Origin: Arenicellales bacterium
GTDB lineage: Bacteria > Pseudomonadota > Gammaproteobacteria > Arenicellales > JAJDZL01
Length of the DNA: 64,000 nt
Reading direction: 5' to 3'
Assembly (NCBI GenBank): GCA_965202615.1
Contig: OZ241837.1
Coordinates: 136,347 to 200,346 of the forward strand
A program made the position numbers and the translations under genes. Below the pieces are notes generated by a model. The model saw only the letters and a list, made by a program, of their open reading frames with translations, was not told where the DNA came from and did not search any database. Positions 30,060 through 56,892 of this stretch are shown one piece after another (the stretch's first letter is position 1; each line of letters begins with the position of its first letter).

Positions 30060-30533
30060 ATGAATTCGAATTTCGCAGCGTTAATTGAAGATCTTCAACC
30101 ACGGTTCGAGCGACTCATGGCCATGGCCCCCGTACGACACGGTCGGTTCATTAGTCCGGTTCCCGAACAAGGCGTGTACTTGTTCTCGGAGCCCGGCAAT
30201 TGTCATCTTTATGTTGGTCGGTCGAGGAGAATTCGCCGTAGATACGGCGGGCACTGCAATCCAGGGGCAAAGGAAAACACGGCTGTTTTTGCATTTCAAC
30301 TCGCACGGGAAGCCACCGGCAGGGTTGAGGCTAGTTACAAGGCTGGACCGGATAGCAGGAAGGGATTAATGAAAGATTCTGAATTCCTCGCTGCATTTGA
30401 TGCGGCAAAGGACCGGATTCGCGGGATGGAATTTAGGTTTGTCGAGGAGCCCGACCCGACCCGGCAATGCCTCCTGGAAATTTACACCGCCGTAGCTCTA
30501 GACACTCGTTACAACAATTTTAAAACCCACTAA
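30060..30533 (+). CDS. GIY-YIG nuclease-domain protein
   Basis: The 157-aa product has GVY-x10-YVG followed by a conserved Arg cluster (GVYLFSEPGNCHLYVGRSRRIRRR). A strong SD (GAGGAGG) precedes the ATG. Confidence 0.65.
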   Translation: MNSNFAALIEDLQPRFERLMAMAPVRHGRFISPVPEQGVYLFSEPGNCHLYVGRSRRIRRRYGGHCNPGAKENTAVFAFQLAREATGRVEASYKAGPDSRKGLMKDSEFLAAFDAAKDRIRGMEFRFVEEPDPTRQCLLEIYTAVALDTRYNNFKTH

Positions 30534-31253
30534 TCAATCAAGGGGTTTGTATTCGAATGACTAGTTTTCGACACGCTCCGCGGACTGACACCTCCTTGGA
30601 GGAGAACGTGTAGTCAATTGTAGAGTTGAGAGTGCACGATGAGCGTTCAATAAATCTTGTAACAGAACTAAACCACCGGAATCGACTGGCTTTAGTTCAC
30701 GAAGCAATTGGTATAAATGACAACCTTGTCGAGTGTGAACTCACTGTACACCGAAGACCCTTTGATGTAGAACTCACATTCACCAATCTGTCAAAAAATC
30801 ATAAGCAAAGGTTGACCGTGATGAAGGTGAGCGTTTCCCAATGAAGATGCGTAGACGCTTGATATTAAAAGTTTTTAGGGGAATAGTGAGAGCCCGATCT
30901 TCAAATACAACGTCGGTTCGTGGAAAAGCTGTCTGGTGCAGTTTTGGGTGATGAACGCGTTGTATTCTTGGGCATATTAGCCGCTGTGTTGTGTCGACTT
31001 GAAGATGGAACAATTGAGTTTGCTGGGATTCCCAACAGCCGCGTGCCTGTCGTCAAAACGAAACAAATGATTGATTTGGGGGTGGTATACAAAGCCCGAA
31101 CAATACTAGAGACGATTGAGCATGGTTTGCGACAACATGGTCAACTTTAGTGCATAAATCCCGCACTACAATTAACGTTTAAATCGAACTTTATTGGTTT
31201 CCTGATTGTCTCATTTGTGTTGTACCAGTCAGATCACCAATATTGAAATACAA

Positions 31254-31261
31254 TAGAAATA
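31254..31261. repeat. target-site duplication TAGAAATA (left)
   Basis: This 8-mer is identical to the one at 33657-33664 and immediately abuts the IS terminal inverted repeat. Confidence 0.9.
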
Positions 31262-31310
31262 GTAACTACTCGGACGGTTTGAGTAATCGGTCCGGCAGTT
31301 AGAGTGCATT

Positions 31311-32804
31311 TTATTCGCTGTCAGTGAGGATGTCTGCGGCTTTGTTTTGTAGTGCGATTTGAATGGCAGTTAACGGGTTGTAGCCCATCAGGCTCATTGA
31401 TTGCAGATAGCTTGAGATGCGGCAATAAGCGGCGGCATATTCGGGTGAGCGGAACGTGCCACTGACTTTTTGCTTGATTTTCGAACCCCTGATTGACCTT
31501 TCCGCGAGATTATTGCTCATAGGACAAGCAGCGTTTTTGGTAAAGCGAAGGATCTCAGTTTCGTAGGTCTCGAAAGCCTCCAGCAGATTGTGTGCATTGG
31601 TCTTCGGTGTACGGCCGCGCTTTCCTGTCCGCTCCGGCAACTCCGGCAACTCCTTTTTACCTTGCGTCAAAATCGTCCGGTACTGCTTGCGCACTGCTTT
31701 GCAACGCTCATCGGTGAGTTTCTTCTGTTCCGTTGCAGCCACTTCGCGGTTCGTTTTCAGGAGCAGCTTTTGCATTCTGTCTGCCCAGCTATGACCATGC
31801 GCATCAACGACAAACTGCAGATCGCGCAGCAAGTGGCTGCCGCATAATGCATGCGCACACTTCTTGTAATTGAAATAACTCGCCCAGCGGTCATGGACCA
31901 GCACGGGTTTTTTATCATCGTCGTCTTCATCTTCATCTTTGCTGCGCCCGGCACCGTAGCGCGGGAGGATGTTGATCTCGTCCATCGCCTCGGTGCCGCG
32001 TTTGGGATGGCAAAACTTCACAATCAGGTTGCCGGATGAATAACTGTGCAGCCAGTGGTTTTTCTTGTTGATGCGAATCGAGGTCTCATCCGCATGCATC
32101 ACCGGCATTTGCAGCAACTGCTCGGTCGCAGCCGCTTCCCATTCGGCCAGCGCCAGATGAACCCGCATCACCCAGGCCATCAAGGTGGACTCTGAGATCA
32201 GCCGCCCGGTCATCACCTTGAGCAACTGTGCGGTACGCCTGACCGCAATCATCTGCGAGATCAGCAAATGAACCGCATAAGCCACGATGCCAGCGCCATA
32301 TTGCAGGCGACCCGGCATGGTGTCCGGAAAAGTGCCGCGGGTGATGCGCTCGCAGGCCGGACAGCGCTTGATTTCAGCATCGATATGATGTTCTTCGGTG
32401 AGGAACACAATGTCAACCAGAGTGCGGCGCTCATGACCAAGCGGCTTCACGCTGGTTAAATCCTTACCGCAGTTGCCACAGTGCTCCACCTCAGAGACCT
32501 CGCTGGTCGACTTGGTTTGTGTGTTGTCGCATTCGCTGTGCGGGTGTTTGCGTCCCTTGCCCTTGGAACCGGCGCTCGATTTTGCCGTATCGTCCTCGGG
32601 CGACTTGGAGCTCGGCAGCCCGGAGTTGGCTGAGCTTTTCGGGGTTTTCTTTTCAACCAGCAGCATCACCACTGTGGTGAGCAGCAACATGAGCGACTGA
32701 AACAGCTGCAGCGTCTTGTCATTGAACTCGCCAGCGTCCTTGAGCTGCTCAAACTGAGCCTGCAGCTCAGACAGATTCTTCTGTATCGACGCCGGCGTGC
32801 TCAT
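31311..32804 (-). CDS. IS66-family transposase (TnpC-type)
   Basis: The 497-aa product has an N-terminal coiled coil, zinc-ribbon motifs CGNCGKD...CPACE and a DDE region (HADETSIRINKKNHWLH). Confidence 0.9.
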   Translation of the reverse strand: MSTPASIQKNLSELQAQFEQLKDAGEFNDKTLQLFQSLMLLLTTVVMLLVEKKTPKSSANSGLPSSKSPEDDTAKSSAGSKGKGRKHPHSECDNTQTKSTSEVSEVEHCGNCGKDLTSVKPLGHERRTLVDIVFLTEEHHIDAEIKRCPACERITRGTFPDTMPGRLQYGAGIVAYAVHLLISQMIAVRRTAQLLKVMTGRLISESTLMAWVMRVHLALAEWEAAATEQLLQMPVMHADETSIRINKKNHWLHSYSSGNLIVKFCHPKRGTEAMDEINILPRYGAGRSKDEDEDDDDKKPVLVHDRWASYFNYKKCAHALCGSHLLRDLQFVVDAHGHSWADRMQKLLLKTNREVAATEQKKLTDERCKAVRKQYRTILTQGKKELPELPERTGKRGRTPKTNAHNLLEAFETYETEILRFTKNAACPMSNNLAERSIRGSKIKQKVSGTFRSPEYAAAYCRISSYLQSMSLMGYNPLTAIQIALQNKAADILTDSE

Positions 32805-33475
32805 CGCTCCGCCTCAACCGACATGATGGCACCAAGCACCGCCACGCGCTCGGCACGCCCCATCGCCTGATAGCGCCGCGCCCAGTTCTGCGCCTTGCGC
32901 TTAATATTCTGACGGTGATTCGGATTGTCCCCGGCATGACGCGACCAGTGCAGCCGGTCTATGTCAAAGTTGTACCACACCACCTCAGTCACCACCCCCG
33001 CCTGATTCATCACCTGAACCTCAAGACGGCGCCAATTCGACAACAACTCATCATACAAAGCAGAACGATAGCCCGACACCATCACCTGGCACGGCAGCGA
33101 CTTCAAGATCTCAAGCAACTCCACATGGTCCGCTTCCTCGTAATCGTAGCGGTACCGATACCGCTCAGGCGCCTTGCGGGTGCTTTTCAGATACGGCGGG
33201 TCGGCATAAACCAGCACATCCTTGTCAAATTCATGGCCGCTCAGATATTCATGGCAGCAGCCATGAATCAGTTCAACCGGATAGTCGCAGGAGAAATCCG
33301 CAATGGCGGCCGCATCCAGATCAATGCCGATGTTATGCAGCGCCGGAGGCTTGCGCTTGAGAATGGAGCCACCGCCCAAATGCGTTTCGAGATATACATT
33401 ATGTGGGGGCATCATGCCGATCAATGGCTGGCACAGACCTGCGGTTGCTTTGGACCCAAGATAGGCTTTGCCCAT
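32801..33475 (-). CDS. D12-class (Dam-like) N6-adenine DNA methyltransferase
   Basis: The 224-aa product has YLGSK...P.HNVYLETHLGGGS (AdoMet motif) and YADPPYL (catalytic DPPY). It has a 4-nt ATGA overlap with the transposase gene and lies inside the IS inverted repeats. Confidence 0.8.
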   Translation of the reverse strand: MGKAYLGSKATAGLCQPLIGMMPPHNVYLETHLGGGSILKRKPPALHNIGIDLDAAAIADFSCDYPVELIHGCCHEYLSGHEFDKDVLVYADPPYLKSTRKAPERYRYRYDYEEADHVELLEILKSLPCQVMVSGYRSALYDELLSNWRRLEVQVMNQAGVVTEVVWYNFDIDRLHWSRHAGDNPNHRQNIKRKAQNWARRYQAMGRAERVAVLGAIMSVEAER

Positions 33476-33728: not shown

Positions 33729-33931
33729 AGGGAAACACTTTAAATCAGCAGCCTGCAATTTCTTCCGAGTTGATTTTTCGAAATTTCTTCTCAATGATGT
33801 CGGCTTCCGATTGCAGATCCGGGTTGCTCTATAGCTGCTGTCAGCGATTCACTAACTCCTATATAATTCAGCGGCATTGTCGGGGCTGACATTCTTCATT
33901 GCTGCGTGGTTCAAATCTCGACAAGACAAGC

Positions 33932-34008
<77 letters not shown>

Positions 34009-34017
34009 TGCAATATG

Positions 34018-34315
34018 CGCCTGTAGCTCAACTGGACAGAGCAACGGCCTTCGACAGGAGCCTTTTCAGGGAATTGTGAAACCTGTTAAGTGGAGGGCAC
34101 TGTATCGGTGAAACCTTAACACGTCGTGGTGATGGCAATACCGAGGAAACCGCTGACTGTGATCATAATGCGGGATCCGTAGAGACTATACGTGCCCCAC
34201 CTGAAATGGTGAAGATATAGTCCAGACTACAAACTGGTTATTTATTCGATCAGGCAATGAAAATTGTAGTGGTACGCTAAGCCGTAGGTTACAGGTTCGA
34301 GTCCTGTCAGGCGTG
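34018..34315 (+). tRNA. tRNA-Arg (anticodon UCU) interrupted by a group I intron between positions 34 and 35
   Basis: The exons 34018-34052 and 34277-34315 join to GCGCCTGTAGCTCAACTGGACAGAGCAACGGCCTT|CTAAGCCGTAGGTTACAGGTTCGAGTCCTGTCAGGCGTG. This is a complete cloverleaf very close to E. coli argU. The 5' exon ends in U and the intron ends in G. Confidence 0.8.
34053..34276 (+). ncRNA. group I (IC3-like) self-splicing intron, no ORF
   Basis: The 224-nt insert has core blocks resembling the Azoarcus/Anabaena tRNA introns as I remember them (GGTGAAACCTTAA, ATGGCAATACCGAGG, CCGTAGAGACTATACGTGCCCCACCT). It shows nested pairings GACTATA 34184-34190 / TATAGTC 34216-34222 and ACTACAA 34225-34231 / TTGTAGT 34264-34270. 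A candidate IGS GAG can pair with the exon CUU. Confidence 0.8.
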
Positions 34316-34382
34316 CTTTTTTTCGGCTTCAGAGGAGTGTCTGTAACAAGCATGAATTTGAAGCCGAACCTAAAAAATTTGT

Positions 34383-34459
34383 GGTGGGCGTAGCTCAGTT
34401 GGTAGAGCCCTGGATTGTGGTTCCAGTCGTCGTGGGTTCAAGTCCCATCGTCCACCCCA
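34383..34459 (+). tRNA. tRNA-His (anticodon GUG) with encoded G-1
   Basis: The acceptor is GTGGGCG/CGTCCAC with an extra 5' G opposite C73. The anticodon loop is TTGTGGT and CCA is encoded. Confidence 0.9.
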
Positions 34460-41870: not shown

Positions 41871-42159
41871 AATATTGATTCCTCCACACTCATTGCAATC
41901 GCTTTCAATGAGCCAAGCGCCCCCTTTCGACCGATACGATCATCGGGTGTGAATAAGTCATCTCTTCAAATTTGCTGGAAGCAGAGATTCGGTCTGCATT
42001 TGCACACGCGAGAACGTTGAGTTTCCCGAATCCCCGCTGTCTGGAATTGGCTGGGTACTGCCAGAGCGTCCATTGACGAAAGAATTTACAACAGCACTCG
42101 ACGCCGGGTATTTAAGGGGTGCGGATTTGTGGCATGTCGCATCTGCAGTCTATGAATAA
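41871..42159 (+). pseudogene. VapC-like PIN-domain toxin pseudogene (start lost, at least two frameshifts)
   Basis: Three frames together read NIDSSTLIAIAFNEPSAPF / SSNLLEAEIRSAFAHAR / WVLPERPLTKEFTTALDAGYLRGADLWHVASAVYE*. The region lies immediately downstream of the phd-like gene. Confidence 0.6.
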
Positions 42160-42199
42160 TCGCATTCTATCAGACACACGAAAAACTTGATTCGCCGAT

Positions 42200-42505
42200 T
42201 TAATTTGATTCCTTTTCTTCTCCCTTTATGTAATCGCGCAAGGCCCGATTTATTTCAGTTTGATAGCCTCTACGGCCTTGCATTCGCGCTCTGAACCAAT
42301 GAACAATGTCAGCGTCCAAGCGCAGAGTGATCTGTTGTTTCACCGGTTTATAAAACACGCCGCGTTTGGCACCTGACCAATCCAACATTTCGGGAATATC
42401 TTTAACGTTGATCTTTTCGTCATCCAATTGAGCGAGATACTCCAATTCAGCTTTTTCGTTATCCGTCAATTCAGCGTCTTTCGTTTTCATACGTTTTTCT
42501 TTCAT
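42200..42505 (-). CDS. brnA: BrnA-family antitoxin (DUF4415/CopG-like)
   Basis: The C-terminal pattern KQQITLRLDADIVHWFR...GYQTEINRALRDYI is diagnostic. I prefer the start at ATG 42505 or 42490, because the track ORF extends into brnT. Confidence 0.75.
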   Translation of the reverse strand: MKEKRMKTKDAELTDNEKAELEYLAQLDDEKINVKDIPEMLDWSGAKRGVFYKPVKQQITLRLDADIVHWFRARMQGRRGYQTEINRALRDYIKGEEKESN

Positions 42506-42758
42506 GTTTAGTGGCTTTTCGAGCACTAATGATTCTACCAGACTGTTGTCCACTTTCATTTTGTATAGGCATGGTATGGATGACCACGACTACCACCGTT
42601 CCAATCATTCCCATCGTACGCCAGCGCGGCTCATCCCAATATGGATCTTCTTTTGTCATGGACAATGGATCTTCAAATACGCGAGTAGCGGTTCCAAAAC
42701 TGATACCGTGAGAACGGATATTTTGATTTTCTTTGTTCTCATCCCAAATCCAATTCAA
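42471..42758 (-). CDS. brnT: BrnT-family toxin (DUF497 ribonuclease)
   Basis: The 95-aa product reads NWIWDENKENQNIRSHGISFGTATRVFEDP and starts with TTG. It lies upstream of, and overlaps, brnA. Confidence 0.75.
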   Translation of the reverse strand: MNWIWDENKENQNIRSHGISFGTATRVFEDPLSMTKEDPYWDEPRWRTMGMIGTVVVVVIHTMPIQNESGQQSGRIISARKATKHERKTYENERR

Positions 42759-42854
42759 TTTAGCACCGCTAAATTATCACTACATTATTGTAGCTACATT
42801 ATGGCATAGAATTCAAATCAATCTGTTCAAAAATATTGAACTCAAACTTAGCAT

Positions 42855-43015
42855 TACAGGTCAACCAGTACCCGCAACGCTCGTAACAAACTCGGCAAAA
42901 TGATGGGCGAGCGTTGTCTTATCAGATTGCCTCAATCCCAGTATTGGAGTGACCGGTGATCTGCCGATAGCGACAAACAAGCGAGTCAAATCACTCGTTG
43001 GAGAAATCATTTTTA
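42855..43015 (-). pseudogene. short relic of an AAA ATPase (DUF4143-type) gene
   Basis: The minus-strand frame reads ...IGRSPVTPILGLRQSDKTTLAHHFAEF...*. This is a degenerate Walker A region (compare GPRRVGKTTLLHQYA at 4108). No start and no remainder of the gene are present. Confidence 0.3.
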
Positions 43016-43310
43016 ACAGAAAAAATTCGAAAATTCGTAGTTACACTTCGAAATTTCAAACAAAAAAGGCACGCCAGAGTATTCTCGGTTTCCAAATCTG
43101 AGAAGTGAGATTGTCCTCGGCACTCTCGCTACACCTTTAATGGCGAGCCGCCTTCACACATCATTTGGTGGTTAGTGCGGAAACCTGGTATGGGAAGCGG
43201 GCCAACTATCAAAAGGTTCACAAAATGAAAAATGCCGATCAATAAAAATCAACCAAATTGATAATATTTGGTACTATAAATGTATACATATATTTCGAAA
43301 CAGTATAGAA

Positions 43311-43844
43311 ATGAACATCGCATCGGCTTTGAAATCCTTGCATGCATTAGACGTTAAAGGGCGGTACGTCTATACTTCAAAAGACTTGGCAAAAGTATTC
43401 TCAGACGACAGCCGCCACGCGTTTCGAGCCGGATTAAAACGCCTCGTGAAAAACGGAATCCTGCAACGCGCAGCCCGAGGTGTCTACGTATTTGCGTATT
43501 CCAGAAACATTGACGCAGACACCGTGGAGTCAATCGCAAAGTCGTTGCGTCGCGGTCACTACAGCTATGTCAGTTTGGAGTCAGCACTGTCTTTATACGG
43601 CGCAATTTCCCAAGTCCCGATTGATCGTTTAACAGTCTTGACTACGGGACGCGAAGGAGAATTCAAAACTCCTTTCGGTGTCATCGAGTTCACACATACC
43701 AAGCGTTCTGTTTCTGAGATTATTGGAAATGTCGTGCAAACTGGACGACCACTGAGATTGGCGACGAAAAAAACAGCGTTTCGAGACCTCAAGAGAGTCG
43801 GACGTAATATCCATCTAGTTGACGAATCAGAGATTGATGAATAA
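43311..43844 (+). CDS. abiEi: AbiEi-family antitoxin (short, AbiEi_4-like)
   Basis: The 177-aa product has an N-terminal wHTH-like region (FRAGLKRLVKNGILQRAARGVYVF) and a YVSLESALSLYG block. An NTase gene overlaps it downstream. Confidence 0.7.
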   Translation: MNIASALKSLHALDVKGRYVYTSKDLAKVFSDDSRHAFRAGLKRLVKNGILQRAARGVYVFAYSRNIDADTVESIAKSLRRGHYSYVSLESALSLYGAISQVPIDRLTVLTTGREGEFKTPFGVIEFTHTKRSVSEIIGNVVQTGRPLRLATKKTAFRDLKRVGRNIHLVDESEIDE

Positions 43845-44727
43845 TCGCCAGAACGTATTTGCGCATCTGGTTAATCGTGCTGTGAGCGATTCCAAATTCA
43901 GCCATATGCGCAATGCGGTCGAAAAGGAACTGTTGATTTACAACATCCTATTCTGCTTCGATCAACATGGCTTATTCGAGAATATTGTTTTCAAAGGTGG
44001 TGCATTGCTTCGTTTGGGGCATGGTGGCGAGCGACTTAGCGAAGATTTGAATTTTGTTGCTGGAGCGGATTTTTCTCCGACAGATTTCAGTCCAGTCAAA
44101 CTTGGAATGGAAAAATTCTTTTCCGAAAGATATGGGTTGGCAGTCGAAGCAGAAGAATCAAAAATCGGGTCTGGAAATGTCGAACGCCGAGAATTTCCAG
44201 TATACCGGTGGCGAATCAATGCAACCATATATCCGGAGCGAAAAGAACTGCCCAAACAGCGTATCAAAATTGATTTTGTAGATGTACCTGCATATACAAA
44301 GGAAATTGTCTCGATGCGCACCCACTACGATTTTTTGCCCGATGGATACGACGATGTTTTGATCGTTTCAGAGACACTAAATGAGGTAATGGCCGATAAG
44401 CTTGTTTTGTTACCTGCCAACTCGCGGTATACCCGATATCGTGATTTTTGGGACTTGTATTGGCTAATTAAACGGCGAGCGGAAGTTGATATGAATTTGG
44501 TACAACGAAAAATCATTGACTACCATTTGTTGGACTATGTAGAATCACTGAACAAAATGATAGAGAGGCTTCCGGACATCGTCAACAGCTCTGAGTTTCA
44601 CACAGAAATGCAAAAATTACTGCCAAGCGACGTATTCGACCGCACTTTGCGTAAAGACAAATTTTGTGAGCATCTGCTTTCATCAGTTCAAAAACTGTTT
44701 GAACAAGTTTGGAATTCACTGAATTGA
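43837..44727 (+). CDS. abiEii: AbiEii/AbiGii-family nucleotidyltransferase toxin
   Basis: The product has the motif FKGGALLRLGHGGERLSEDLNF. ATG 43837 gives an 8-nt overlap (ATGAATAA) with the abiEi stop. The track start at 43819 is a TTG. Confidence 0.8.
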   Translation: MNNRQNVFAHLVNRAVSDSKFSHMRNAVEKELLIYNILFCFDQHGLFENIVFKGGALLRLGHGGERLSEDLNFVAGADFSPTDFSPVKLGMEKFFSERYGLAVEAEESKIGSGNVERREFPVYRWRINATIYPERKELPKQRIKIDFVDVPAYTKEIVSMRTHYDFLPDGYDDVLIVSETLNEVMADKLVLLPANSRYTRYRDFWDLYWLIKRRAEVDMNLVQRKIIDYHLLDYVESLNKMIERLPDIVNSSEFHTEMQKLLPSDVFDRTLRKDKFCEHLLSSVQKLFEQVWNSLN

Positions 44728-45058
44728 TCGTGCTGAGAAAACGGGTACTACCTCACCTCCAATTCCTCTGCAATTCAAATGCCAGCAACGGTGTTCATAT
44801 TCACTGGAATCTAATTCACATAACTCCTGAATATGCATTTGGAAAAGCAACACAGCTAGCTTTATTGCTTTTGGAATTGATCAGTTTTGAAGATGCTTCG
44901 GGTATTAATGCAATTTTCGTGACTAAAATAGTATCGCAAATCCGTTTTCGAGCTTCAGACAGAGGCATCACATTTGTCAGAATGAAAATTGACCATAATT
45001 TTGTATTTGAACGCTGAAAGTCGAGTCTGATACATCTATCGACTAATCCTGAGGAGTT

Positions 45059-48000
45059 ATGACACGGATTGTTCATCCAGGCCTATACGAACACCTGCTG
45101 ACTTCAGCGCTGGAAGCAGAAATCAAGGCTCGAAAGGAAGAAGGCTGGCACATGGATTGTGACCTGGCTGATTCTACTGTCCGCTCTGAAATACTTGCCC
45201 GACACGTTTATCAACTTGTTCGCCGCGTTTTGGATGGATTTTCGAATGACGAAAACACTCAAACCACTAAACAGATTGAGCTCGTAAACAACTTGGTAGA
45301 CACGCTATCCGATCATGGCATAACGAAAGATGATCGCGTTGCGGAAGCCGCACAATTGCTGATCGAGGCGATTGATCGACCCGGATTGAAGAGTACTCCT
45401 TTACCGCGTCCAACCTTATCTCTTCGTCGAACCGGGTTGCTTGTAAATAGCCGACGCGATGTCCAGATGGCACGCGAAGTCGTTCATGAAATTCCAACCG
45501 CTGATCGCATCGACCTTTTGTGCGCATTTGTACGAAACACGGGATTGAGGCTATTCCAAGACGAACTAAAAGCAAGGGCTCAAGAAGGAGTGCCGGTGCG
45601 AGTGATTACGAGTGTATACACTGGAACTACAGAGCGTCGAGCGCTAGACAAACTTGTCGAACTTGGTGCAACGGTGAAAGTGTCTTACGACACGACGCGA
45701 ACGCGTCTTCATGCCAAGGCTTGGTTGTTTCATCGAAAAAGCGGACTGCATACCGCCTATATCGGCTCATCTAACCTCACCCATACCGCCCAGGTTGACG
45801 GACTTGAATGGAACGTGCGCGTGAGTGTTGTTGAAAATCCTGAAGTCATTGAAAGATTCGAAGCAACTTTCGAACAATACTGGCAAGAACCTGAATTTAA
45901 TGACTATATTCCGGAACGCCATGCTGAAAAATTGGACGACGTTTTATCGAAGCAAAGAGGTGGTGGTAAGGGCGAGAACAATTTTCCGTTACCCCTAATT
46001 GTTGATGTTGAGCCCAAATCTCACCAAACTGTCGCGCTTGAGGCACTCAAAGCGGAGCGTCTACGTGGATTCAACCGAAACCTGGTTGTTGCTGCAACCG
46101 GTGTTGGCAAGACATGGATTGCAGCCTTTGATTTTTTGGAATTACAAAAGCAAAATTCGATGCGGTCCCTGCTATTTGTGGCACACCGGGAAGAAATTCT
46201 GCAACAAAGTCGACAGGTTTTTCAACTCGTTTTGCGCGAGGCGTCGTTCGGCGAGTTACTGGTAGCCGGACAGCGTCCGCAGGTTGGAAGTTTCATATTT
46301 GCTTCGGTGCAATCTCTGAAAAATCGCCTTGACGACATTGAACCGGAGGATTTTGATGTTGTTATTGTCGATGAGTTTCATCATGCAGCAGCTAAAAGCT
46401 ACGAACAACTACTGACACGACTGAAGCCAAAAGTTCTTCTCGGACTTACCGCTACACCAGAGCGCACAGATGGCAAGTCTGTGCTTGAATGGTTTGATGG
46501 TCGCATTGCTTTTGAATCCAGACTTTGGGATGCGCTTGATCAGGGGCTTCTTTGCCCATTTCACTACTTCGGCATCAATGATCCAACCGACCTTTCTAGC
46601 ATAGCCTTTGAACGAGGCAGGTACGTGCAAGAAGAACTAGACAATGTACTCAGTGGAGATCACATTAGAGCACAACGTATTCGGCAAGCACTCGAGAAGT
46701 ATGTCTCAGAACCAAGAGAAATGCGAGCGTTGGGATTCTGTGCTGGAGTTGATCATGCACACTTCATGGCAGATCAATTCGAACGTTTTGGGTACCCATC
46801 TGTCGCATTGGATGCCAATACGCCACGCGGAGAACGTCATCGGGCACGCAATCAATTGCGAGAGGGAAAGATTCGGATTATCTTTACCGTCGATTTGTTT
46901 AACGAGGGCGTCGATTTACCGGAAGTCGATACAGTGCTAATGCTACGGCCGACAGAGAGCCCCACCGTATTTTTGCAGCAACTCGGCAGAGGACTGCGGT
47001 GGTCGAAAGAAAAACAGGTACTGACAGTCCTTGACTTCGTGGGTCAAGTGAGAACAGAATACCGCTACGACATTCGTTATCGGGCTTTGCTAGGCGGCAC
47101 ACGACACCAAGTCCGGCAAGCCATTGAAGCAGACTTTCCTTTCTTACCGCTTGGATGCGTACTCAAACTGGATTCGATCGCAAAAGATACCGTACTGAAC
47201 AACTTAAGACAGGCGGTTCACAATGCTCGAGTGAACATGGTAAACGACCTTCGCAACTTAGGTCCCGATGCACGACTTAAGGAATTTATGAGGGAGGCGA
47301 ATATTGAACTTGAAGAGATTTACTCCAAACCCAATAGCGGGCACTGTTTTTCTCAACTTCGACTACAAGCCAATTTTACAGACGATACGGATCTGCCTGA
47401 TCACTACAATTCAATCTTCAAAACTTTGGGACGGATGATTCACGTCGATGATTTAGAGCGACTCGAAAATTGGCGCAAGATTCTGGAATCCAATAATTCC
47501 TCTCCAATTTCCAGTCTACGGGGACGTGAATATCGCTTGGGTCTTATGTTGTTCGGAGTACTCGAAGGAAACCGTCGTTCAATTTCCGAAGCTGATCAGA
47601 TCGTCAACGATATTCGCGAATCAACAGAATTACGCCGGGAGGTTTGCGATCTTCTGGAAGTCCTGTCTGACAGAATTCGAACAGTGCCTGAACCAGCCAG
47701 TTCATTGGATGAAGTGCCATTGGCTAGCCATGCGACTTATACGCGAGGAGAAATTATGGCTGCTTATGAGCGTTTCGATAAAAATGGGCGTATATTTCTA
47801 CCGCGAGAGGGCGTTCTGTGGGACAAGTCAACAAATACAGATTTATTTTTCGTAACCCTTGAGAAATCAGAGAAAGATTTCTCACCGATGACACGCTACG
47901 CGGACTATCCGATTTCACCGACCTTGTTTCACTGGGAATCACAGAACTCCACATCACCCAATACAGCAAGTGGACGTCGCTATATAGAACAATCAACGCG

Positions 48001-48190
48001 CAAATCGAACGTCCTGTTGTTTGTCCGAGAACGCAGCAAGGATGGTCGTGGATTAGCCCTTCCTTTCCATTGCCTTGGTCGGATCTTCTACAAGCGGCAT
48101 GAGTCAGAGCGACCTATGAAAATTATTTGGGAATTAGAACGACCAATGCCGGGTTGGTTATTTCAGGCGGGAAAAGCGGTAGCGGGTTGA
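45059..48190 (+). CDS. PLD(HKD) nuclease - SF2 DExH helicase - DUF3427 fusion protein (candidate defence effector)
   Basis: The 1043-aa product has the HKD motif RLHAKAWLF...YIGSSNLT (aa ~216-241). Helicase motifs are Walker A AATGVGKT (345-352), DEFH (438-441), TAT (464-466) and QQLGRGLR (640-647). The C-terminal block LFFVTLEKSEKDFSPMTRYADYPISPTLFHWESQ is DUF3427-like. An SD GAGGAG precedes the ATG. Confidence 0.85.
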   Translation: MTRIVHPGLYEHLLTSALEAEIKARKEEGWHMDCDLADSTVRSEILARHVYQLVRRVLDGFSNDENTQTTKQIELVNNLVDTLSDHGITKDDRVAEAAQLLIEAIDRPGLKSTPLPRPTLSLRRTGLLVNSRRDVQMAREVVHEIPTADRIDLLCAFVRNTGLRLFQDELKARAQEGVPVRVITSVYTGTTERRALDKLVELGATVKVSYDTTRTRLHAKAWLFHRKSGLHTAYIGSSNLTHTAQVDGLEWNVRVSVVENPEVIERFEATFEQYWQEPEFNDYIPERHAEKLDDVLSKQRGGGKGENNFPLPLIVDVEPKSHQTVALEALKAERLRGFNRNLVVAATGVGKTWIAAFDFLELQKQNSMRSLLFVAHREEILQQSRQVFQLVLREASFGELLVAGQRPQVGSFIFASVQSLKNRLDDIEPEDFDVVIVDEFHHAAAKSYEQLLTRLKPKVLLGLTATPERTDGKSVLEWFDGRIAFESRLWDALDQGLLCPFHYFGINDPTDLSSIAFERGRYVQEELDNVLSGDHIRAQRIRQALEKYVSEPREMRALGFCAGVDHAHFMADQFERFGYPSVALDANTPRGERHRARNQLREGKIRIIFTVDLFNEGVDLPEVDTVLMLRPTESPTVFLQQLGRGLRWSKEKQVLTVLDFVGQVRTEYRYDIRYRALLGGTRHQVRQAIEADFPFLPLGCVLKLDSIAKDTVLNNLRQAVHNARVNMVNDLRNLGPDARLKEFMREANIELEEIYSKPNSGHCFSQLRLQANFTDDTDLPDHYNSIFKTLGRMIHVDDLERLENWRKILESNNSSPISSLRGREYRLGLMLFGVLEGNRRSISEADQIVNDIRESTELRREVCDLLEVLSDRIRTVPEPASSLDEVPLASHATYTRGEIMAAYERFDKNGRIFLPREGVLWDKSTNTDLFFVTLEKSEKDFSPMTRYADYPISPTLFHWESQNSTSPNTASGRRYIEQSTRKSNVLLFVRERSKDGRGLALPFHCLGRIFYKRHESERPMKIIWELERPMPGWLFQAGKAVAG

Positions 48191-48457
48191 ATTGTTCAAT
48201 TAAAAATTCATTTGCACAAACGGGAAATTCGAATTAGAAATTGGAACAGCCACACCAGCCGACAACCCATGGTCTCGATGACGCCATTCTCAAGGCGGAA
48301 TTGGATTTTTGTTGGTACCTCAAATTCCTGACTTTGACATCATTGCTTTGTTCTATCGAATTGTCTCTTTTGACAAAAATTGGCTAGGTTTTCGTAATCA
48401 ATTAGCGATAGGATGGCGGCAATTTGTCCCAAAATCCGAATAAAAGAATCGCGTAAC

Positions 48458-49051
48458 TTATCGTTTGCTAAAAATCTTATCCGCATTGATGATGGAAATG
48501 GCCATTTCAGAAATCGTGACTTGCTTGTTCATTGCTTCTGTTCTGATAAGCGCGTAAGCGTCATCCACTGTAATTTTCTGATGCTCAGCCAATATTCGAG
48601 TCGCTCTCTCGACCGACCTGCGTGCCTTAAGCGTCTCATCCAATTTTGCTATTCGTGCATTCAGTCTCCCCTCATACTTGTAGATGGATAAGGCGGTGAG
48701 CAATTTCGCCAATACCCCGATCGGGCGAATGGGTTTAGTTATCACGCCATGGACACCAGTATTCGTAATCGATTGCAGAATAAGTGGATTTTCGTATGAA
48801 ATGATCGCAATTAATGCTGACTGGTGCCAGTCACTCAAATAACCGAGACTGTCAGATTGACTTGGGTCCGCCAGGAAAAATATGGCATCGGCCCCGTTCA
48901 GTGCAGCTTCCTGAAACGGCCATACTTCACTTACCCGACAACCAATTCTTTGCAGTTGAAGCGAAAGATTCTTCTGATCTTCATCAATCGGATGAACTAC
49001 AACAACTTTGGTATTTCGAACGTCACGGATGAACCGATCATTTACGGTCAC
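48458..49051 (-). CDS. amiR: ANTAR-domain antiterminator response regulator AmiR
   Basis: The 197-aa product is collinear with P. aeruginosa AmiR as I remember it (LQLQRIGCRV..., C-terminal ANTAR helix region RSVERATRILAEHQKITVDDAYALIRTEAMNK). It starts with GTG. Confidence 0.85.
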   Translation of the reverse strand: MTVNDRFIRDVRNTKVVVVHPIDEDQKNLSLQLQRIGCRVSEVWPFQEAALNGADAIFFLADPSQSDSLGYLSDWHQSALIAIISYENPLILQSITNTGVHGVITKPIRPIGVLAKLLTALSIYKYEGRLNARIAKLDETLKARRSVERATRILAEHQKITVDDAYALIRTEAMNKQVTISEMAISIINADKIFSKR

Positions 49052-49084
49052 TAGTAGCTCCTCAATGACACATTGCCAATATCT

Positions 49085-50242
49085 TTAGATTGTAGCAATA
49101 GTTCTGTCATAAGCGACAAGATAGGGGTCTGGTTTTACGGGTTGCGGAGCTTGCCAAACAACCTCAAAAGTTCCATCTGCCGTGGAGCGTCCGATGCGAG
49201 GCGTGACGTAAACGTGGTTGTTATCCGGGTCTATCTTGATTCTTCCTTGTGGAGCTTCAAATTGTGCGCCTTTTATCGCGCTCAACAATACCTCAGGTGA
49301 ATGATTGTTAATTTGTGCCAGCGCCCGAGCCAAAATACGGACTTGTGAATACGCAGTTTCCGAGTAGACGCACGGCAGGTCGTCAACTCCAAACTTCGAT
49401 TGGTACCGGGAAAGAAACTCCTGGTTTGCATCCGTATCGATGGACTGGAAATAGGGTAGCGAAGTTATATGGCCCACTCGGGAATCAACGCTCATGCATG
49501 ACAATTCACTTTCGCTTGTTGTCAGGCTGGCTATTGGACATTTGTTCGGATCAATACCCTTGCTATGACAGGCCTCGTATAACTTTGCAGTATCGTTTCC
49601 CACAACAGTCGAAAGGATTACGCTTGAACCGGATTCGGCCAGTTTTTCAGCAGCGAGGTGAAAGAGTTCTTCGTTGGCGCTCAAAGGTAGATAGAATTCA
49701 GTGGTGGCAACGCCATTGCTTTCGACCAGAAACTCCTTTACGATTCGGTTAATTTCGTGGGGAAAGATGTAATCCGATCCAACGAGGGCAAACTTCTTCC
49801 CATAATTTTTAAAGAGAAATTCCACTAGTGGAACAACCGTTTGATTGGGCGTTGCCCCAGCGTACACAATGTTGGGCGAATATTCAAACCCCTCATAGAA
49901 AGATGGATAAAAGAGCAATACCCCGTGTCGTTCGACAATTGGGAGCAGTGCTTTGCGGCTAGCCGACGCGCAACATCCAAAGATCACTGATACTTGATCC
50001 TGAATGAGTAGTTTCTTCGCCAATTCCCGATAAATGGTCGGATCCGATTTCGGATCTTCCACGATGTAATGCAGAGGCAACCCACCAATTCCGCCATTCT
50101 CATTAATTTCATCGATGGCCATCAAGGTGCCTTTTAGGTGTGCTTTTTCAGTAACTGCCATTGGGCCATCTTGTGAGAAAAGCACCCCAATGGAAATCTG
50201 GGAATCGTTTCCAGAACTAATACTGGTTTTGTTCCTTGCCAT
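49085..50242 (-). CDS. amiC: amide-sensing negative regulator AmiC (periplasmic-binding-protein fold)
   Basis: The 385-aa product is strongly collinear with P. aeruginosa AmiC (YEGFEYSPNIVY, IASLTTSE, PDPYLV). Confidence 0.85.
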   Translation of the reverse strand: MARNKTSISSGNDSQISIGVLFSQDGPMAVTEKAHLKGTLMAIDEINENGGIGGLPLHYIVEDPKSDPTIYRELAKKLLIQDQVSVIFGCCASASRKALLPIVERHGVLLFYPSFYEGFEYSPNIVYAGATPNQTVVPLVEFLFKNYGKKFALVGSDYIFPHEINRIVKEFLVESNGVATTEFYLPLSANEELFHLAAEKLAESGSSVILSTVVGNDTAKLYEACHSKGIDPNKCPIASLTTSESELSCMSVDSRVGHITSLPYFQSIDTDANQEFLSRYQSKFGVDDLPCVYSETAYSQVRILARALAQINNHSPEVLLSAIKGAQFEAPQGRIKIDPDNNHVYVTPRIGRSTADGTFEVVWQAPQPVKPDPYLVAYDRTIATI

Positions 50243-50289
50243 GCGAAACTATATGAGAGGAAATATTTTCGATTGTGCGTAAAAGGATG

Positions 50290-51687
50290 CTAATTGGGTT
50301 TCATCTCGTGCCACGTGGTTAATTTCTGAAATTGATCTGCAACAGCGATGATTTTACTTTCCCGGAAAGCGGCACCGACCAGCATTAACCCAATTGGAAG
50401 CCCTTTGTCATCGTACCCACAGGGAATGGAAATTGCGGGCAATCCACAGGAGTTGGCAATCCATGCGATGGATGTCATCGCATCTTGAGAGGAAATCGAA
50501 CTGCCATTTATATTCAGCGTGTGCTCTCCAATTCTCGGGGCTGTTGTCGGCAGAGTCGGCATTGCGATCATGTCATATTGCTCGAAGATTGCGCCGATTT
50601 TTTGATTGAGTAGTGTACGGTACTGCTGGGCCTTAAGGTAACTTTGGGCGGAAAGACATCTTCCCGCTTCGATTTGCACTCTCACATTGTCAGAGTATTT
50701 TTCCGGGCATTCGGAAAGAAATCGCGCGTGATATGTGGCTGCCTCGCTATGAAGAATTATTTTCCATGCGCCAAAACCGGTGCTTAATCCCGGAATAGTT
50801 ACATCTTCAACTATCCCTCCCTCTTCTTCCAGATTGCTTAACGCCGCTTCAACGGCGGCGACAACAACGGGGGCAGTGACAATTTCGTCACTGCGAAGAG
50901 CGGCGATTCGAACCTGATTTCCGGGTCGCTGAACTTGATTGTATTGGCTTATTCCGAACGTTGTAGGGTCTCTAGGGTCTTCTCCGGACATGACTTTAAG
51001 CAATAGATCGAGATCCCGCGCAGAACGCGCCATGGGTCCAGCGGTGTCAAGTGTCCAAGACAATGGGAGAATCCCAGCTCGACCGACACGTCCAAAAGTC
51101 GGTTTCAGACCGCTTACGCCGCACGCGGCCGACGGAATTCGTACAGAACCTCCCGTGTCGCTTCCCAAGGCAGCAGGGACCATTCTTGCCGCCAATGCTG
51201 CGCCTGACCCTCCGCTAGAACCTCCGGTAATGTGATCATTGTTCCATGGATTACAGGCAGCCCCGAATATAGAAACTTCATTGGTTGCGCCATAGGCCCA
51301 TTCGTGCATATTTGTCTTTCCGATTATGACTGCACCGGAAGCGCGAAGCTTTGAAACGACTGTAGAATCCGTACCATTGGGTTGACCCAAATGCACCTTC
51401 GAACAGGCTGTAGTCGGAAAATCCGCGGTGTAGTAGTTGTCTTTGACCGCGATTGGAATACCATGAAGCGAACCGGCAAATTGTCCATTTGTTGCTTGCA
51501 TATCATAGGTTTGGGCTTGCTCCAGTGCCCATTCAGCGTTGATTGCGACAAACGCATTTGTCGATTCTTGAGTCTCCTCTATGCGGTCGAGACATTGCTG
51601 AACCAATTCCGTAGCGGTTATTTCACGGTCATGAATCAACTTCCGCAATGCGACCAAATCAAGTTCATTTAGTGCACTCTTGTTCAT
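50290..51687 (-). CDS. amidase-signature (GatA-like) amidase
   Basis: The 465-aa product has the AS motif GGSSGGSGAALAA...GSDTGGSVRIPSA and the catalytic Lys context IAVKDN. Confidence 0.9.
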   Translation of the reverse strand: MNKSALNELDLVALRKLIHDREITATELVQQCLDRIEETQESTNAFVAINAEWALEQAQTYDMQATNGQFAGSLHGIPIAVKDNYYTADFPTTACSKVHLGQPNGTDSTVVSKLRASGAVIIGKTNMHEWAYGATNEVSIFGAACNPWNNDHITGGSSGGSGAALAARMVPAALGSDTGGSVRIPSAACGVSGLKPTFGRVGRAGILPLSWTLDTAGPMARSARDLDLLLKVMSGEDPRDPTTFGISQYNQVQRPGNQVRIAALRSDEIVTAPVVVAAVEAALSNLEEEGGIVEDVTIPGLSTGFGAWKIILHSEAATYHARFLSECPEKYSDNVRVQIEAGRCLSAQSYLKAQQYRTLLNQKIGAIFEQYDMIAMPTLPTTAPRIGEHTLNINGSSISSQDAMTSIAWIANSCGLPAISIPCGYDDKGLPIGLMLVGAAFRESKIIAVADQFQKLTTWHEMKPN

Positions 51688-51688
51688 G

Positions 51689-51889
51689 TCATCCTCTCTC
51701 GTTGTTGCCGGAATTTACTACTGAAAATCGGATGTCGGGTTCAGCCCACGATACATCATCCAGGGACCTGTCAGTTTCGTCTGCCTCAATCAGGATTGCC
51801 AGGACTTTATCGATTTGATCATTCGAGAGAGGCTCCCAACCTTTCTGCATACGGTACTTAATCAAGTTTTCTTTTGTCCAATTTGCCAT
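51689..51889 (-). CDS. 66-aa protein translationally coupled to the amidase; possible GatC/AtzG-like accessory subunit
   Basis: The ORF has an ATG with an SD (GGGAGA). Its stop lies 1 nt before the amidase ATG, and the amidase SD sits inside its 3' end. The acidic helical pattern LSNDQIDKVLAILIEADETDRSLDDVSWAEPDIRF recalls GatC. Confidence 0.55.
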   Translation of the reverse strand: MANWTKENLIKYRMQKGWEPLSNDQIDKVLAILIEADETDRSLDDVSWAEPDIRFSVVNSGNNERG

Positions 51890-51901
51890 GATAGTCTCCC
51901 G

Positions 51902-52615
51902 TTACACTCCTAGCAGTTCATGCAGGAGGGCTTCATTAGTGAGAAGGTGTTCTTTTGAAGTTTCATGCGTAATCGTTCCGTTGTTGAGGATATAGGCCCG
52001 TTCCACCAAGGAAAGGCAAAAATCAAGGTTCTGTTCGGCGATCAAGATTGAAAGTCCGCGTTCGTTGTTGAAACGGCGGAGAATTGCTGCGATTTCATCA
52101 ATGATCGTCGGTTGCACCCCTTCGGTCGGTTCGTCGAGAAGAATAACTTTGGGCTTCGTAGCCAGGGCTCGTGCAATGGACAGAATCTGCTGCTGTCCTC
52201 CGCTCAGGTTGCCCGCCAAGGAATCCTTTTTTTCTTCGAGAATCGGGAAATCGACATAGGCCTCATTGATAGCGGCTTTCTTGTCATGCCCGCAGGCAAT
52301 TGCAGCAGCGGCGATATTTTCAGAAACACTCAACCGTGGAAATACAAAACGTCCTTGGGGAACATAGCCCAGTCCTTTTTTGACTCTTTTCGAAGTGGAG
52401 GCCGGCAGTGTCTTTCCGTTAATTGACACAGACCCTCCAAAGCTATCAATTAACCCCATTGCGTATTTCATGAGTGTCGACTTACCCGCTCCATTACGCC
52501 CAAGGAGAGCAACAATTTCAGCCTCGCCCACCGTCAGTGATGAGTCGTAAACAATTGTCGTTTTCTTGTATCCGCCCCTAGCTTCAGATATCTCGAACAC
52601 TTTCTCGCCTCCCAA
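51902..52615 (-). CDS. branched-chain/urea-type ABC transporter ATP-binding protein (LivF/UrtE-like)
   Basis: The product has Walker A GRNGAGKST, the signature LSGGQQQ and Walker B ILLDEP. The exact start is uncertain (TTG at 52615 or GTG at 52600). Confidence 0.85.
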   Translation of the reverse strand: MGGEKVFEISEARGGYKKTTIVYDSSLTVGEAEIVALLGRNGAGKSTLMKYAMGLIDSFGGSVSINGKTLPASTSKRVKKGLGYVPQGRFVFPRLSVSENIAAAAIACGHDKKAAINEAYVDFPILEEKKDSLAGNLSGGQQQILSIARALATKPKVILLDEPTEGVQPTIIDEIAAILRRFNNERGLSILIAEQNLDFCLSLVERAYILNNGTITHETSKEHLLTNEALLHELLGV

Positions 52616-54443: not shown

Positions 54444-54458
54444 TGGAGAATCTTGCGA

Positions 54459-55325
54459 TTAGAGTTTCATTCGCCAGCGACCGGAAATTCCTAATGGGAA
54501 AATTCGCAGTATCGCGATGGTTAGGAAGAAGAAAACAAAGTCACCAACGACGCTTGTCCAAAAGCTTGCGGTGATATTGCCAATCGTACCTAAAGCACCC
54601 CCAACTACAACCGTGCCTGTCAAAGTAACCGGCCCAGCTGCCACAACGGCCAAGAAAGCCTTGACGACATATGCGAATCCCATGTTTGGGGTGGCTGGAA
54701 TTGCCGGAAGCAGGATTGCGCCTGCGAACCCTGCCAGTCCAGAACCAAGTGCAAAAGTAATTGTGTTTATGCGCGAAGATTCAATTCCTATAGCGGATGC
54801 TGTTTCACTGTCCTGAATTGCCGCACGTGCAGTAATTCCATACCCAGTTTTCGTAAGCAGCCAGTACAGTCCGCTAATCAAGAGCGCTGCAACCACAATC
54901 AAAAACAGCAAATAAGATGAGATCGAGTAGTCGCCGATTTGCACATTGGAAATTGGAAGTCCGATACCGGGGGTGACTGAACCGAATATCAAAACTGCTG
55001 ATTGATACAAAACGAGACTGAGTCCCCACGTTGCCAACAGAGTGTCGAGAATGCGACCGTAGAGGTGGCGAATGATCAGCCGTTCGACCAACCCTCCAAA
55101 AAGAGCAGTCGCCAGGCAAGCAAATATTACGGCAATCGGATATGGAATTCCGATTTGTGTCGCAAACAGGGCGGCGTAAGCACCGAACATGATGAACTCG
55201 CCGTGGGCCAAATTGATAACGCCCATCAGACCAAACATAACAGCCAGTCCAATTGTTGCGATCAGCAGAATTGACGCACTTGACAATGATGACAAGAGAA
55301 CTGTTGCGATATAGTCGAGTTCCAT
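54459..55325 (-). CDS. ABC transporter permease (LivH/UrtB-like)
   Basis: The 288-aa polytopic product looks LivH-like. Confidence 0.85.
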   Translation of the reverse strand: MELDYIATVLLSSLSSASILLIATIGLAVMFGLMGVINLAHGEFIMFGAYAALFATQIGIPYPIAVIFACLATALFGGLVERLIIRHLYGRILDTLLATWGLSLVLYQSAVLIFGSVTPGIGLPISNVQIGDYSISSYLLFLIVVAALLISGLYWLLTKTGYGITARAAIQDSETASAIGIESSRINTITFALGSGLAGFAGAILLPAIPATPNMGFAYVVKAFLAVVAAGPVTLTGTVVVGGALGTIGNITASFWTSVVGDFVFFFLTIAILRIFPLGISGRWRMKL

Positions 55326-55452
55326 TGAGTTAAATCGCTACTGAGCCCTATTTGTTTCAGCTAACGAGTGACGGTTGATTCAGAAATTAGTGCGGGTAAC
55401 AGTTGAATGTTACCCGCACCCTAACACATTTAGGGAAAAACGCCGATAGCAA

Positions 55453-56706: not shown

Positions 56707-56833
56707 AATTGCCTCCTTTTGGAAACTAACTTTAGATTTCCAAAAATTTATACCTGCATCAAAGTGACATGAGAATTCGGTGCAATACACAAAATTCCGC
56801 TTGCGTCTCGTCCGAAAGTAGTTTGGGGAGGTG

Positions 56834-56892
56834 AAAACAAAAAAGCAACCACACACCCTCTCAAAACTTCAGTTTGATAAGACGTTGGCTGC
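56834..56892 (-). terminator. leader rho-independent terminator (long imperfect hairpin plus U-tract)
   Basis: The minus strand reads GCAGCCAACGUCUUAUCAAAC-UGAA-GUUUUGAGAGGGUGUGUGGUUGC followed by UUUUUUGUUUU. The outer pairing is GCAGCCA/UGGUUGC. Confidence 0.5.

Follow-up and report, generated by a model that had tools for sequence, protein, structure and literature searches.

A tRNA-Arg(UCU) gene of an Arenicellales bacterium, very likely split by a small group I intron from a family widespread at the same site

Within a stretch of 64,000 nucleotides (nt) from an Arenicellales bacterium (contig OZ241837.1 of GenBank assembly GCA_965202615.1; hereafter the window, with positions counted from its first letter), two halves of a tRNA-Arg(UCU) gene lie between a tRNA-Pro and a tRNA-His gene (Table 1). 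ARAGORN and Rfam both call the two neighbors, and the halves themselves, which an earlier reading of the letters without database searches (the sequence-only reading) had pointed out, are plain in the sequence. The 5' half reads GCGCCTG...AGAGCAACGGCCTT and its exon ends in ...GGCCTT, the insert starts with CGACAGGAG and ends with GGTACG, and the 3' exon reads CTAAGCCGT...CAGGCGTG, its opening also being given as CTAAGCCGTAGG. The split gene covers 34017-34315 in total, and removal of 225 nt (34052-34276) joins ...GGCCUU to CUAAGCC... in a canonical cloverleaf of 75 nt, which ARAGORN calls as tRNA-Arg(tct) with the loop CU-UCU-AA, A20, and a discriminator G, so that joining the exons restores the host gene. 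The junction as the sequence-only reading had worded it, with an exon end CCUU, an insert end UACG, and a restored CU-UCU-AA, agrees with this removal of 225 nt; its numbers were off by one, since the gene starts at G34017 rather than at 34018, and literal removal of the proposed 224-nt insert (34053-34276) leaves an 8-nt loop containing “tcct.” ARAGORN finds no other tRNA-Arg gene in the 64-kb window.

Several independent lines of evidence characterize the insert as a group I intron. Searched at a lower threshold, a region of 581 nt matches the Rfam model RF00028 with 38.6 bits (E=2.3e-8) over model positions 1-253, at window 34045-34240. An independent nhmmer profile, built from nine other members of the intron family described below with the window sequence excluded, gives a single match in the whole window, which spans the insert end to end (34047-34280; 170 bits, E=6.8e-52). 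At the 5' splice site, the last exon nucleotide (U-1) forms a U34051.G34058 wobble inside CUUC/GGAG, a U.G pair present in 11 of the 11 family sequences with letters at this place, and the flanking C-G and U-A pairs occur in 15 of 15. The last intron nucleotide (omega-G) is G34276, in a column that is invariant in alignments A1 and A3, and boundaries with U-1 and omega-G resolve in all 61 genes (the window and at least 60 others). The insert contains no homing endonuclease gene, its longest open reading frame (ORF) being 16 amino acids in 225 nt. Taken together, the RF00028 and profile matches, U-1, omega-G, the P1-P9 fold set out below, and ORFs of at most 16 amino acids bear out the proposal that an ORF-less group I intron sits between tRNA positions 34 and 35. 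The three sequence blocks that the sequence-only reading had quoted as core-like are all present, and all fall on core elements: GGTGAAACCTTAA corresponds to P4-J4/5-P5, ATGGCAATACCGAGG to P5'-J5/4-P4'-P6, and CCGTAGAGACTATACGTGCCCCACCT to P6'-J6/7-P7-P3'-P8 (P, paired regions; J, joining segments).

We derived the fold model from a comparison of 18, then 15, short family members, and counted pairing on alignment A1, which holds 15 homologs. In addition to the nested helices P7/P8/P9 that had been noticed from the letters, this comparison gives a full P1-P9 fold with a P3/P7 pseudoknot, in which 94.6% of the cells are in standard pairs compared with 76.0 +/- 1.0% after shuffling (0 of 500 shuffles reach the observed value), and sliding the 3' partners by 1-3 columns lets the paired cells fall to 33-44%. 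Double-sided changes are found in 36 of the 61 pairs, with several each in P2, P3, P4, P6a, P8, P9, and P9b, while the weakest helices, P5, P5a, and P9a, are paired in 72-78%, which is partly an alignment problem. Because P7 never varies, covariation is uninformative either way on its pairing; its sequence and pairing match the annotated P7 in the seed alignment of Williams 2020 (bioRxiv 10.1101/2020.01.27.920355), the Azoarcus intron included, and it is presumed to be the guanosine-binding helix with the bulged A. Two alternative pairings were rejected. The P1 that follows from the Rfam alignment misplaces the splice site, and the register adopted instead, CUUC/GGAG, is shared by the Williams seed and conserved across the family; for P9, the pairing ACUACAA/UUGUAGU was discarded, as P9 ACUAC/GUGGU, P9a, and P9b covary instead.

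Table 1. Features of the tRNA operon and predicted helices of the intron, in window coordinates
Feature	Position	Strand	Basis or remark
Promoter-like site CTGTCA-18-TATAAT, candidate operon promoter	33838-33867	+	Consensus scan, 10/12 matches; pattern only
tRNA-Pro(UGG), CCA encoded, first gene of the operon	33931-34007	+	ARAGORN; RF00005 67.6 bits
tRNA-Arg(UCU) 5' exon, tRNA positions 1-34, ends ...ACGGC-CUU; U34051 is U-1	34017-34051	+	Sequence
Group I intron, 225 nt, ORF-less; omega-G is G34276	34052-34276	+	RF00028, nhmmer family profile, covariation
P1, CUUC/GGAG guide, loop GACA	34049-34052 with 34057-34060	+	C-G, U-A, U.G wherever letters present; same P1 in Rba190.Arg.3Ug
P2	34062-34070 with 34082-34090	+	Double changes in 8/9 pairs; 97.8% paired
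P3, GGGCAC/GUGCCC, encloses P4-P6 and the 5' strand of P7	34095-34100 with 34192-34197	+	100% paired; double changes in 5/6
P4	34105-34110 with 34139-34144	+	100% paired, 3 covarying pairs
P5; J4/5 AAA, J5/4 CAA	34114-34115 with 34134-34135	+	Less certain; P5/P5a 73-78% paired
P5a	34120-34122 with 34129-34131	+	Less certain; P5/P5a 73-78% paired
P6	34145-34147 with 34176-34178	+	P6 and P6a 92% paired, 3 pairs with double changes
P6a	34150-34153 with 34170-34173	+	Counted jointly with P6
P7, G-A(bulge)-GACUA/UAGUCC, pseudoknot with P3	34182-34188 with 34218-34223	+	Invariant in 15/15, 100% paired
P8, CACC/GGUG, U-GAAA-U loop	34198-34211	+	100% paired; double changes in 3/4
P9, ACUAC/GUGGU	34226-34230 with 34269-34273	+	100% paired, 3 covarying pairs
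P9a	34234-34238 with 34249-34253	+	Poorly aligned, 72% paired
P9b, CAAU-GAAA-AUUG	34255-34266	+	100% paired, 4 covarying pairs
tRNA-Arg(UCU) 3' exon: CUAA, anticodon-stem strand GCCGU, to discriminator G34315	34277-34315	+	Sequence
tRNA-His(GUG), last tRNA of the operon within the window	34384-34459	+	ARAGORN; RF00005 61.8 bits

The intron belongs to a family that recurs at this very site. A scan for the P7-P3'-P8-P7' signature AGAGACTANACG-N12-42-RGATATAGTCC across genomes, each species being represented by one, returned at least 120 loci; the genome of the window was not among them, and the true family size is larger. Split genes were resolved with intron-aware ARAGORN and the U-1/omega-G rule. 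At least 33 of these genome loci are tRNA-Arg(UCU) genes split at the identical site (...CCTT/intron...G/CTAAGC...). A narrower pattern applied to metagenomes yielded 23 contigs, 21 of them with a complete split gene, and the broad pattern applied to viral contigs added 6 more, giving at least 60 same-site split genes beyond the window (33 from genomes and 27 from metagenomes or viral contigs); plasmids contained no match to the intron pattern. Judged by record titles, the hosts include Bacillota (Bacillus cereus, B. gaemokensis, Neobacillus, Fredinandcohnia, and Melghirimyces), Bacteroidota (Chitinophagales, Saprospiraceae, Cytophagales, and Fibrisoma), Acidobacteriota (Pyrinomonadaceae, Blastocatellia, and others), Ignavibacteria, Anaerolineae and Promineifilaceae (Chloroflexota being also among the phyla), one “Nitrospiraceae” metagenome-assembled genome (MAG), and Gammaproteobacteria (Arenicellales, “Ca. 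Poriferihabitans,” and unclassified MAGs); the split site is identical across at least six phyla. The intron sequences fall into groups that track their hosts, namely Bacillota, two acidobacterial types, Bacteroidota with ORFs, and Gammaproteobacteria; since the intron groups follow the host groups, mostly vertical descent after older transfers appears to be the likely history.

In the Gammaproteobacteria, the conservation extends to the operon. The nearest relative among the matches listed, on the Arenicellales chromosome L075 (OZ244840.1), carries an intron that is 82% identical over its full length and is syntenic with the window from tRNA-Pro through a PALP-family and an MttB-family gene, with 70% nucleotide identity over 3 kb and amino acid identities of 67% for PALP and 73% for MttB. 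The order Pro(UGG)-Arg(UCU) with intron-His(GUG), in many cases with Lys or Leu next, is present in all seven complete genome loci that are gammaproteobacterial or cluster with them. It is also present in 18 metagenomic contigs out of 23; the five without the full order end mid-operon and show part of it. The synteny with L075, the PALP and MttB identities, and the shared gene order substantiate the view of the sequence-only reading that this is a gammaproteobacterial tRNA operon and point to a marine gammaproteobacterium related to Arenicellales as its source. Because the order is conserved and L075 is syntenic, the intron appears to be an old resident of the operon, a fixed and vertically inherited passenger in this lineage. 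Most gammaproteobacterial relatives (L007, L016, L015, L036, L072, and L241-L262) have a hairpin of 20-120 nt inserted within the loop of P1, where it separates the 5' splice site from GGAG; neither the window nor L075 has this hairpin. The “Nitrospiraceae” contig L003 (CAYGAS010000131.1) groups with the gammaproteobacterial loci in its operon, its exons, and its intron, with 97% identity in tRNA-Pro, and may be mis-binned. Within the window, the promoter-like site, about 65 nt upstream of tRNA-Pro, is consistent with a single Pro-Arg-His transcript, a fit that proves nothing and leaves its function putative. A T8 run opens the spacer between tRNA-Arg and tRNA-His (34316-34383), which also holds a long hairpin, TTCGGCTTCA...TGAAGCCGAA, at 34322-34368.

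Given this body of evidence, we consider it very likely that a group I intron, 225 nt long and ORF-less, splits the tRNA-Arg(UCU) gene between anticodon positions 34 and 35, and that it is one of the small introns of bacterial tRNAs, with an Azoarcus IC3-like core and from a widespread family that is always found at this site; the intron is probably functional. Several observations weigh against this reading: RF00028 at its gathering score reports nothing at the insert (38.6 compared with 50 bits); folding of the single sequence gives an ordinary energy (z=-0.78); two adjacent U.U mismatches, absent from the relative L075, lie in the middle of P2; the tRNA-Arg gene does not encode CCA, the discriminator G being followed by CTTTTTTTT; and the tRNA has a G1.U72 pair. 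The first of these, together with the fact that default ARAGORN likewise leaves the split gene uncalled, might point to an insertion other than an intron, be it a miniature inverted-repeat transposable element, the remnant of an insertion sequence (IS), or chance sequence. However, an RF00028 alignment over the full length, the family profile match, covariation helix by helix, and precise U-1/omega-G boundaries in 61 genes speak for an intron; alignment, covariation, and profile refute such an insertion, to which we assign next to no probability. When RF00028 was run on eight homologous introns, three scored 31-42 bits and five had no match at E<=0.001, and because the relatives behave in this way, the subthreshold score is a property of the intron family; the gathering score is a cut-off used in annotation rather than a biological criterion. 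The RF00028 search that the sequence-only reading had proposed as a check therefore came out in two ways, with a significant match and with a score under the gathering value, as is typical for the family. According to Williams 2020, the Rfam model had no bacterial seeds, and a cut-off of 18-20 bits was used there. Single-sequence folding is uninformative here; the minimum-energy structure recovers P4-P6, P8, and P9b and mispairs P1-P3, as expected for a pseudoknotted ribozyme.

The remaining points raise the question of whether the locus is a decaying relic, a pseudogene that no longer yields a functional tRNA and has left the reading of AGA to a tRNA-Arg(UCU) gene at another place in the genome. 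Besides the P2 mismatches, the G1.U72 wobble, and the absence of CCA with a T-run straight after the discriminator, the IS66 transposase and further mobile-looking genes just upstream (30060-33475) would suit such a history, as they indicate a disturbed neighborhood. However, when compared with 47 other nonredundant family introns of at most 400 nt, in which 91 columns are at least 90% conserved, the window intron agrees at 90 of these 91 positions, and the sole exception, A34257 where the others have G, lies in P9b and is compensated in an A-U pair. All core helices are able to form, the tRNA cloverleaf is canonical, and the gene still stands between two intact tRNAs in an operon that is conserved. 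The G1.U72 pair is shared with several relatives, namely L075, L257, L248, and L015, while CCA is encoded in the Pro and His neighbors and in most gammaproteobacterial relatives. Helices tolerate tandem U.U pairs, and a CCA-adding enzyme is present in bacteria; on established knowledge, then, the P2 mismatches, the missing CCA, and G1.U72 are not disabling, and no other hints of decay than these were seen. In addition, the only tRNA-Arg-TCT gene found in the Beggiatoaceae is the one split by an intron (PMC4853749). Taken together, we regard a relic as unlikely.

If the intron is functional, splicing could proceed as follows. The Pro-Arg-His cluster would be transcribed into one precursor, in which the intron would fold into P1-P9 with the P3/P7 pseudoknot, and the C-U-U at the exon end and the first intron base would pair with the guide GGAG, placing U34051 in the U.G wobble. 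Free guanosine bound in P7 would attack after U34051, G34276 would then take the same site, and the freed 5' exon would attack after G34276, with ligation of the exons restoring CU-UCU-AA as the loop. Pairing of ACGGC (34044-34048) with GCCGU (34281-34285) in the anticodon stem could keep the exons together, and end trimming and CCA addition would complete a tRNA that reads AGA. Of this scheme, the sequence and the fold show where the exons end, how the guide pairs, that the core is conserved, and that the tRNA is restored; the splicing chemistry is inferred from established group I intron biochemistry.

Alternatively, the element might be a true group I intron that in vivo needs a protein cofactor or the tRNA body for folding and is not an autonomous self-splicing ribozyme. 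In keeping with such a dependence, P1 has only 3-4 bp and P10 at most 2 bp, the 225-nt version has minimal peripheral elements, and the Anabaena tRNA-Leu intron can be spliced only if its exons pair with each other in the anticodon stem (Zaug et al. 1993, as cited in PMC3984707). Against it, the Azoarcus tRNA-Ile intron, which is just as small, self-splices efficiently (Tanner and Cech 1996, as cited in PMC4033280), and two loops able to make tertiary contacts, GAAA in P9b and GNRA in P8, are retained in the window intron; we consider an obligate helper very unlikely. The window copy is among the three shortest of the matches listed (the others being L074 with 219 nt and L075 with 223 nt), and this short intron is a compact candidate ribozyme for study.

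The combination of host and site, which the sequence-only reading had held to be unusual, turned out to have precedents. The sequence-only reading had named the four classical bacterial tRNA introns, a list that Williams 2020 enlarged to 21 classes in 5292 split tRNA genes, with Arg.3Ug among the new ones. On the authority of MacGregor et al. 2013, Flood et al. 2016 (PMC4853749) describe an intron-split tRNA-Arg-TCT in Maribeggiatoa BOGUAY and in “Ca. Thiomargarita nelsonii.” Because of this class and these reports, the combination of host, isoacceptor, and site is already on record, and with at least 60 more same-site genes it is also common; the window is a new example. It has all the features that define Arg.3Ug, that is, a tRNA-Arg host, insertion after the third anticodon-loop nucleotide (CUU/c...g/CUAA), U-1, and omega-G. 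The Beggiatoaceae introns, compared by their published description, are alike in occurring in Gammaproteobacteria, in the same isoacceptor, and in being missed by standard annotation, and differ in their host order. Existing knowledge of group I introns is unchanged by these findings. Recognizing the intron does correct the tRNA inventory of the genome, which would seem to be without tRNA-Arg(UCU), as in the Beggiatoaceae, because standard annotation skips the split gene.

Among other known introns, the one in Azoarcus pre-tRNA-Ile(CAU), which belongs to subgroup IC3 and whose structures have been solved, resembles the window intron in being small and ORF-less, in its helix order, and in the P3/P7 pseudoknot. 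Its P7 and J6/7 are nearly identical (GUAGAGACUA), its J8/7-P7' is similar (AAGnnAUAGUCCAG), and identity is 72% over 170 aligned positions. It differs in its host tRNA and in its site (class Ile2.5, after the fifth loop nucleotide rather than the third), and its P8 has a tetraloop receptor, whereas in the window intron, a GNRA loop caps a P8 of 4 bp. The cyanobacterial and plastid tRNA-Leu(UAA) intron (Leu.3Ug) resembles the window intron in its position (after CUU, at 34/35), in U-1, and in omega-G, and it is anciently fixed and vertically inherited in its lineage, but it has another host tRNA and another core, the seed Sel1.Leu.3Ug being 63% identical; in Anabaena, P7 is GACUC/GAGUC. The alphaproteobacterial tRNA-Arg(CCU) intron (Arg.5Ug) has a tRNA-Arg, an IC3-type core, and a proteobacterial host in common with the window. 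It interrupts a CCU rather than a UCU gene, two nucleotides further 3', after the fifth loop nucleotide, and the window intron, with anticodon UCU and insertion after the third nucleotide, is not a member of Arg.5Ug. Finally, the Synechocystis tRNA-fMet intron reportedly encodes I-Ssp6803I, a PD-(D/E)XK homing endonuclease. It thus is a tRNA intron with the same endonuclease fold as found in long members of the window's family (PF11645), in another host tRNA, whereas the window intron itself has no ORF. The endonuclease of the tRNA-fMet intron is cited in PMC3984707.

Within Arg.3Ug, the seed Rba190.Arg.3Ug agrees with the window in host tRNA, site, U-1/omega-G, the CUUC/GGAG P1, the P1-P9 layout, and a GAAA-capped P9b, yet its identity of about 70% over aligned positions is no higher than that of seeds from other tRNAs; overall, identities between the window and the seeds range from 63 to 72% and do not discriminate between seeds. 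The cores differ. Like Azoarcus, Rba190 has P4 UCGGGG/CCCGA, P6 GCC/GGU, and J8/7 AAGGGAUAG, whereas the window has P4 UCGGUG/UACCGA, P6 GGA/UCC, CUAUAC, and J8/7 AAGAUAUAG, signatures that are closer to those of the seeds Gba28.Ile2.2Ug, Mle24.Lys.3Ug, and Mba143.Tyr.4Ug. Since its core signatures differ from those of the Rba190 seed, the window type may represent a second intron lineage at the same tRNA-Arg(UCU) site. A wider scenario, which we put forward tentatively and regard as possible but rather doubtful, is that this second, independent lineage at 34/35 spread between phyla via forms with PD-(D/E)XK or HNH endonucleases, possibly through the tRNA arrays of huge phages, and has long been fixed across a large group of marine Gammaproteobacteria (Arenicellales, Poriferihabitaceae, and relatives), within their Pro-Arg-His operon, where it would lie on the sole route to an AGA-reading tRNA. 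If so, AGA decoding would depend on a ribozyme across a whole marine gammaproteobacterial clade.

Signs of mobility are found in the longer relatives. Family members of 597-656 nt contain ORFs, several long members encode a PD-(D/E)XK endonuclease (PF11645, E=1.8e-33), and HNH_3 ORFs (E=3.7e-12) are present in two viral-contig copies, L170 and L195, with introns of 606-620 nt. Such endonuclease ORFs are as expected for a mobile family with ORF-less derivatives, and by comparison with these members, the window intron reads as an ORF-less derivative of a mobile intron family. The survey thereby provides a clean set on the fixation and spread of a tRNA intron, with one and the same site, ORF-less and endonuclease forms, and operon-level conservation in marine Gammaproteobacteria.

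Six contigs labeled as viral in IMG/VR (L163, L184, L192, L173, L170, and L195) carry the same-site split tRNA-Arg(UCU), either as a phage tRNA or in the host flank of a prophage. Two “uncultured phage” genomes of about 485 kb, L264 (LR745208.1, 166324-169516) and L265 (LR756508.1, 10651-13776), have tRNA arrays in which group-I-like inserts of the same core type split several of the genes: in L265, a tRNA-Lys(UUU) contains an insert of 193 nt and a tRNA-Arg(UCU) one of 175 nt at the same CUU/ site, and in L264, a tRNA read as Ile(UAU) contains one of 210 nt. According to a 2014 review (PMC3984707), all phage group I introns then known lay in protein-coding genes. Adjoining the huge-phage tRNA array, at 2228-2452 of L265, we also noted a strong match to the HEARO RNA (RF02033, 144 bits, E=2e-30).

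The same core occurs in other genes as well. The core pattern was found in split tRNA-Asn(GUU) genes of Microbacterium and Agromyces (L009, L024, L046, L076, and L100) and in split tRNA-Met(CAU)-like genes of an Omnitrophota MAG (L019), of three gammaproteobacterial MAGs (L040, L044, and L097), and of a Roizmanbacteria MAG (L120), which by their sequences look to be further intron classes sharing this core. Outside tRNA genes, the P7-P8 core signature appears at L001, L004, L010, L011, L062, and L086 and at many Patescibacteria loci (e.g., L012, L017, and L021-L023, with three copies on L023). The MAG labels of these loci are Woesearchaeota, Nanoarchaeota, and Patescibacteria, and they are probably rRNA introns.

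Elsewhere in the window, the mobile-looking genes directly before the tRNA operon comprise a weak GIY-YIG-like ORF under the Pfam cut-off (30060-30533), an IS66-family transposase on the minus strand (31311-32804, E=2e-40), and an ORF resembling D12-class adenine methyltransferases, also on the minus strand (32801-33475); this segment may be an insertion beside the tRNA cluster. A full-length match to RF02646 (Ruegeria cis8 small RNA) lies at 5821-5949 on the plus strand (85.4 bits, gathering score 58, E=9e-14), although the window looks gammaproteobacterial. Finally, G+C is 0.43-0.48 at 42001-58000, compared with about 0.50-0.55 elsewhere in the window, and this part may be an island.

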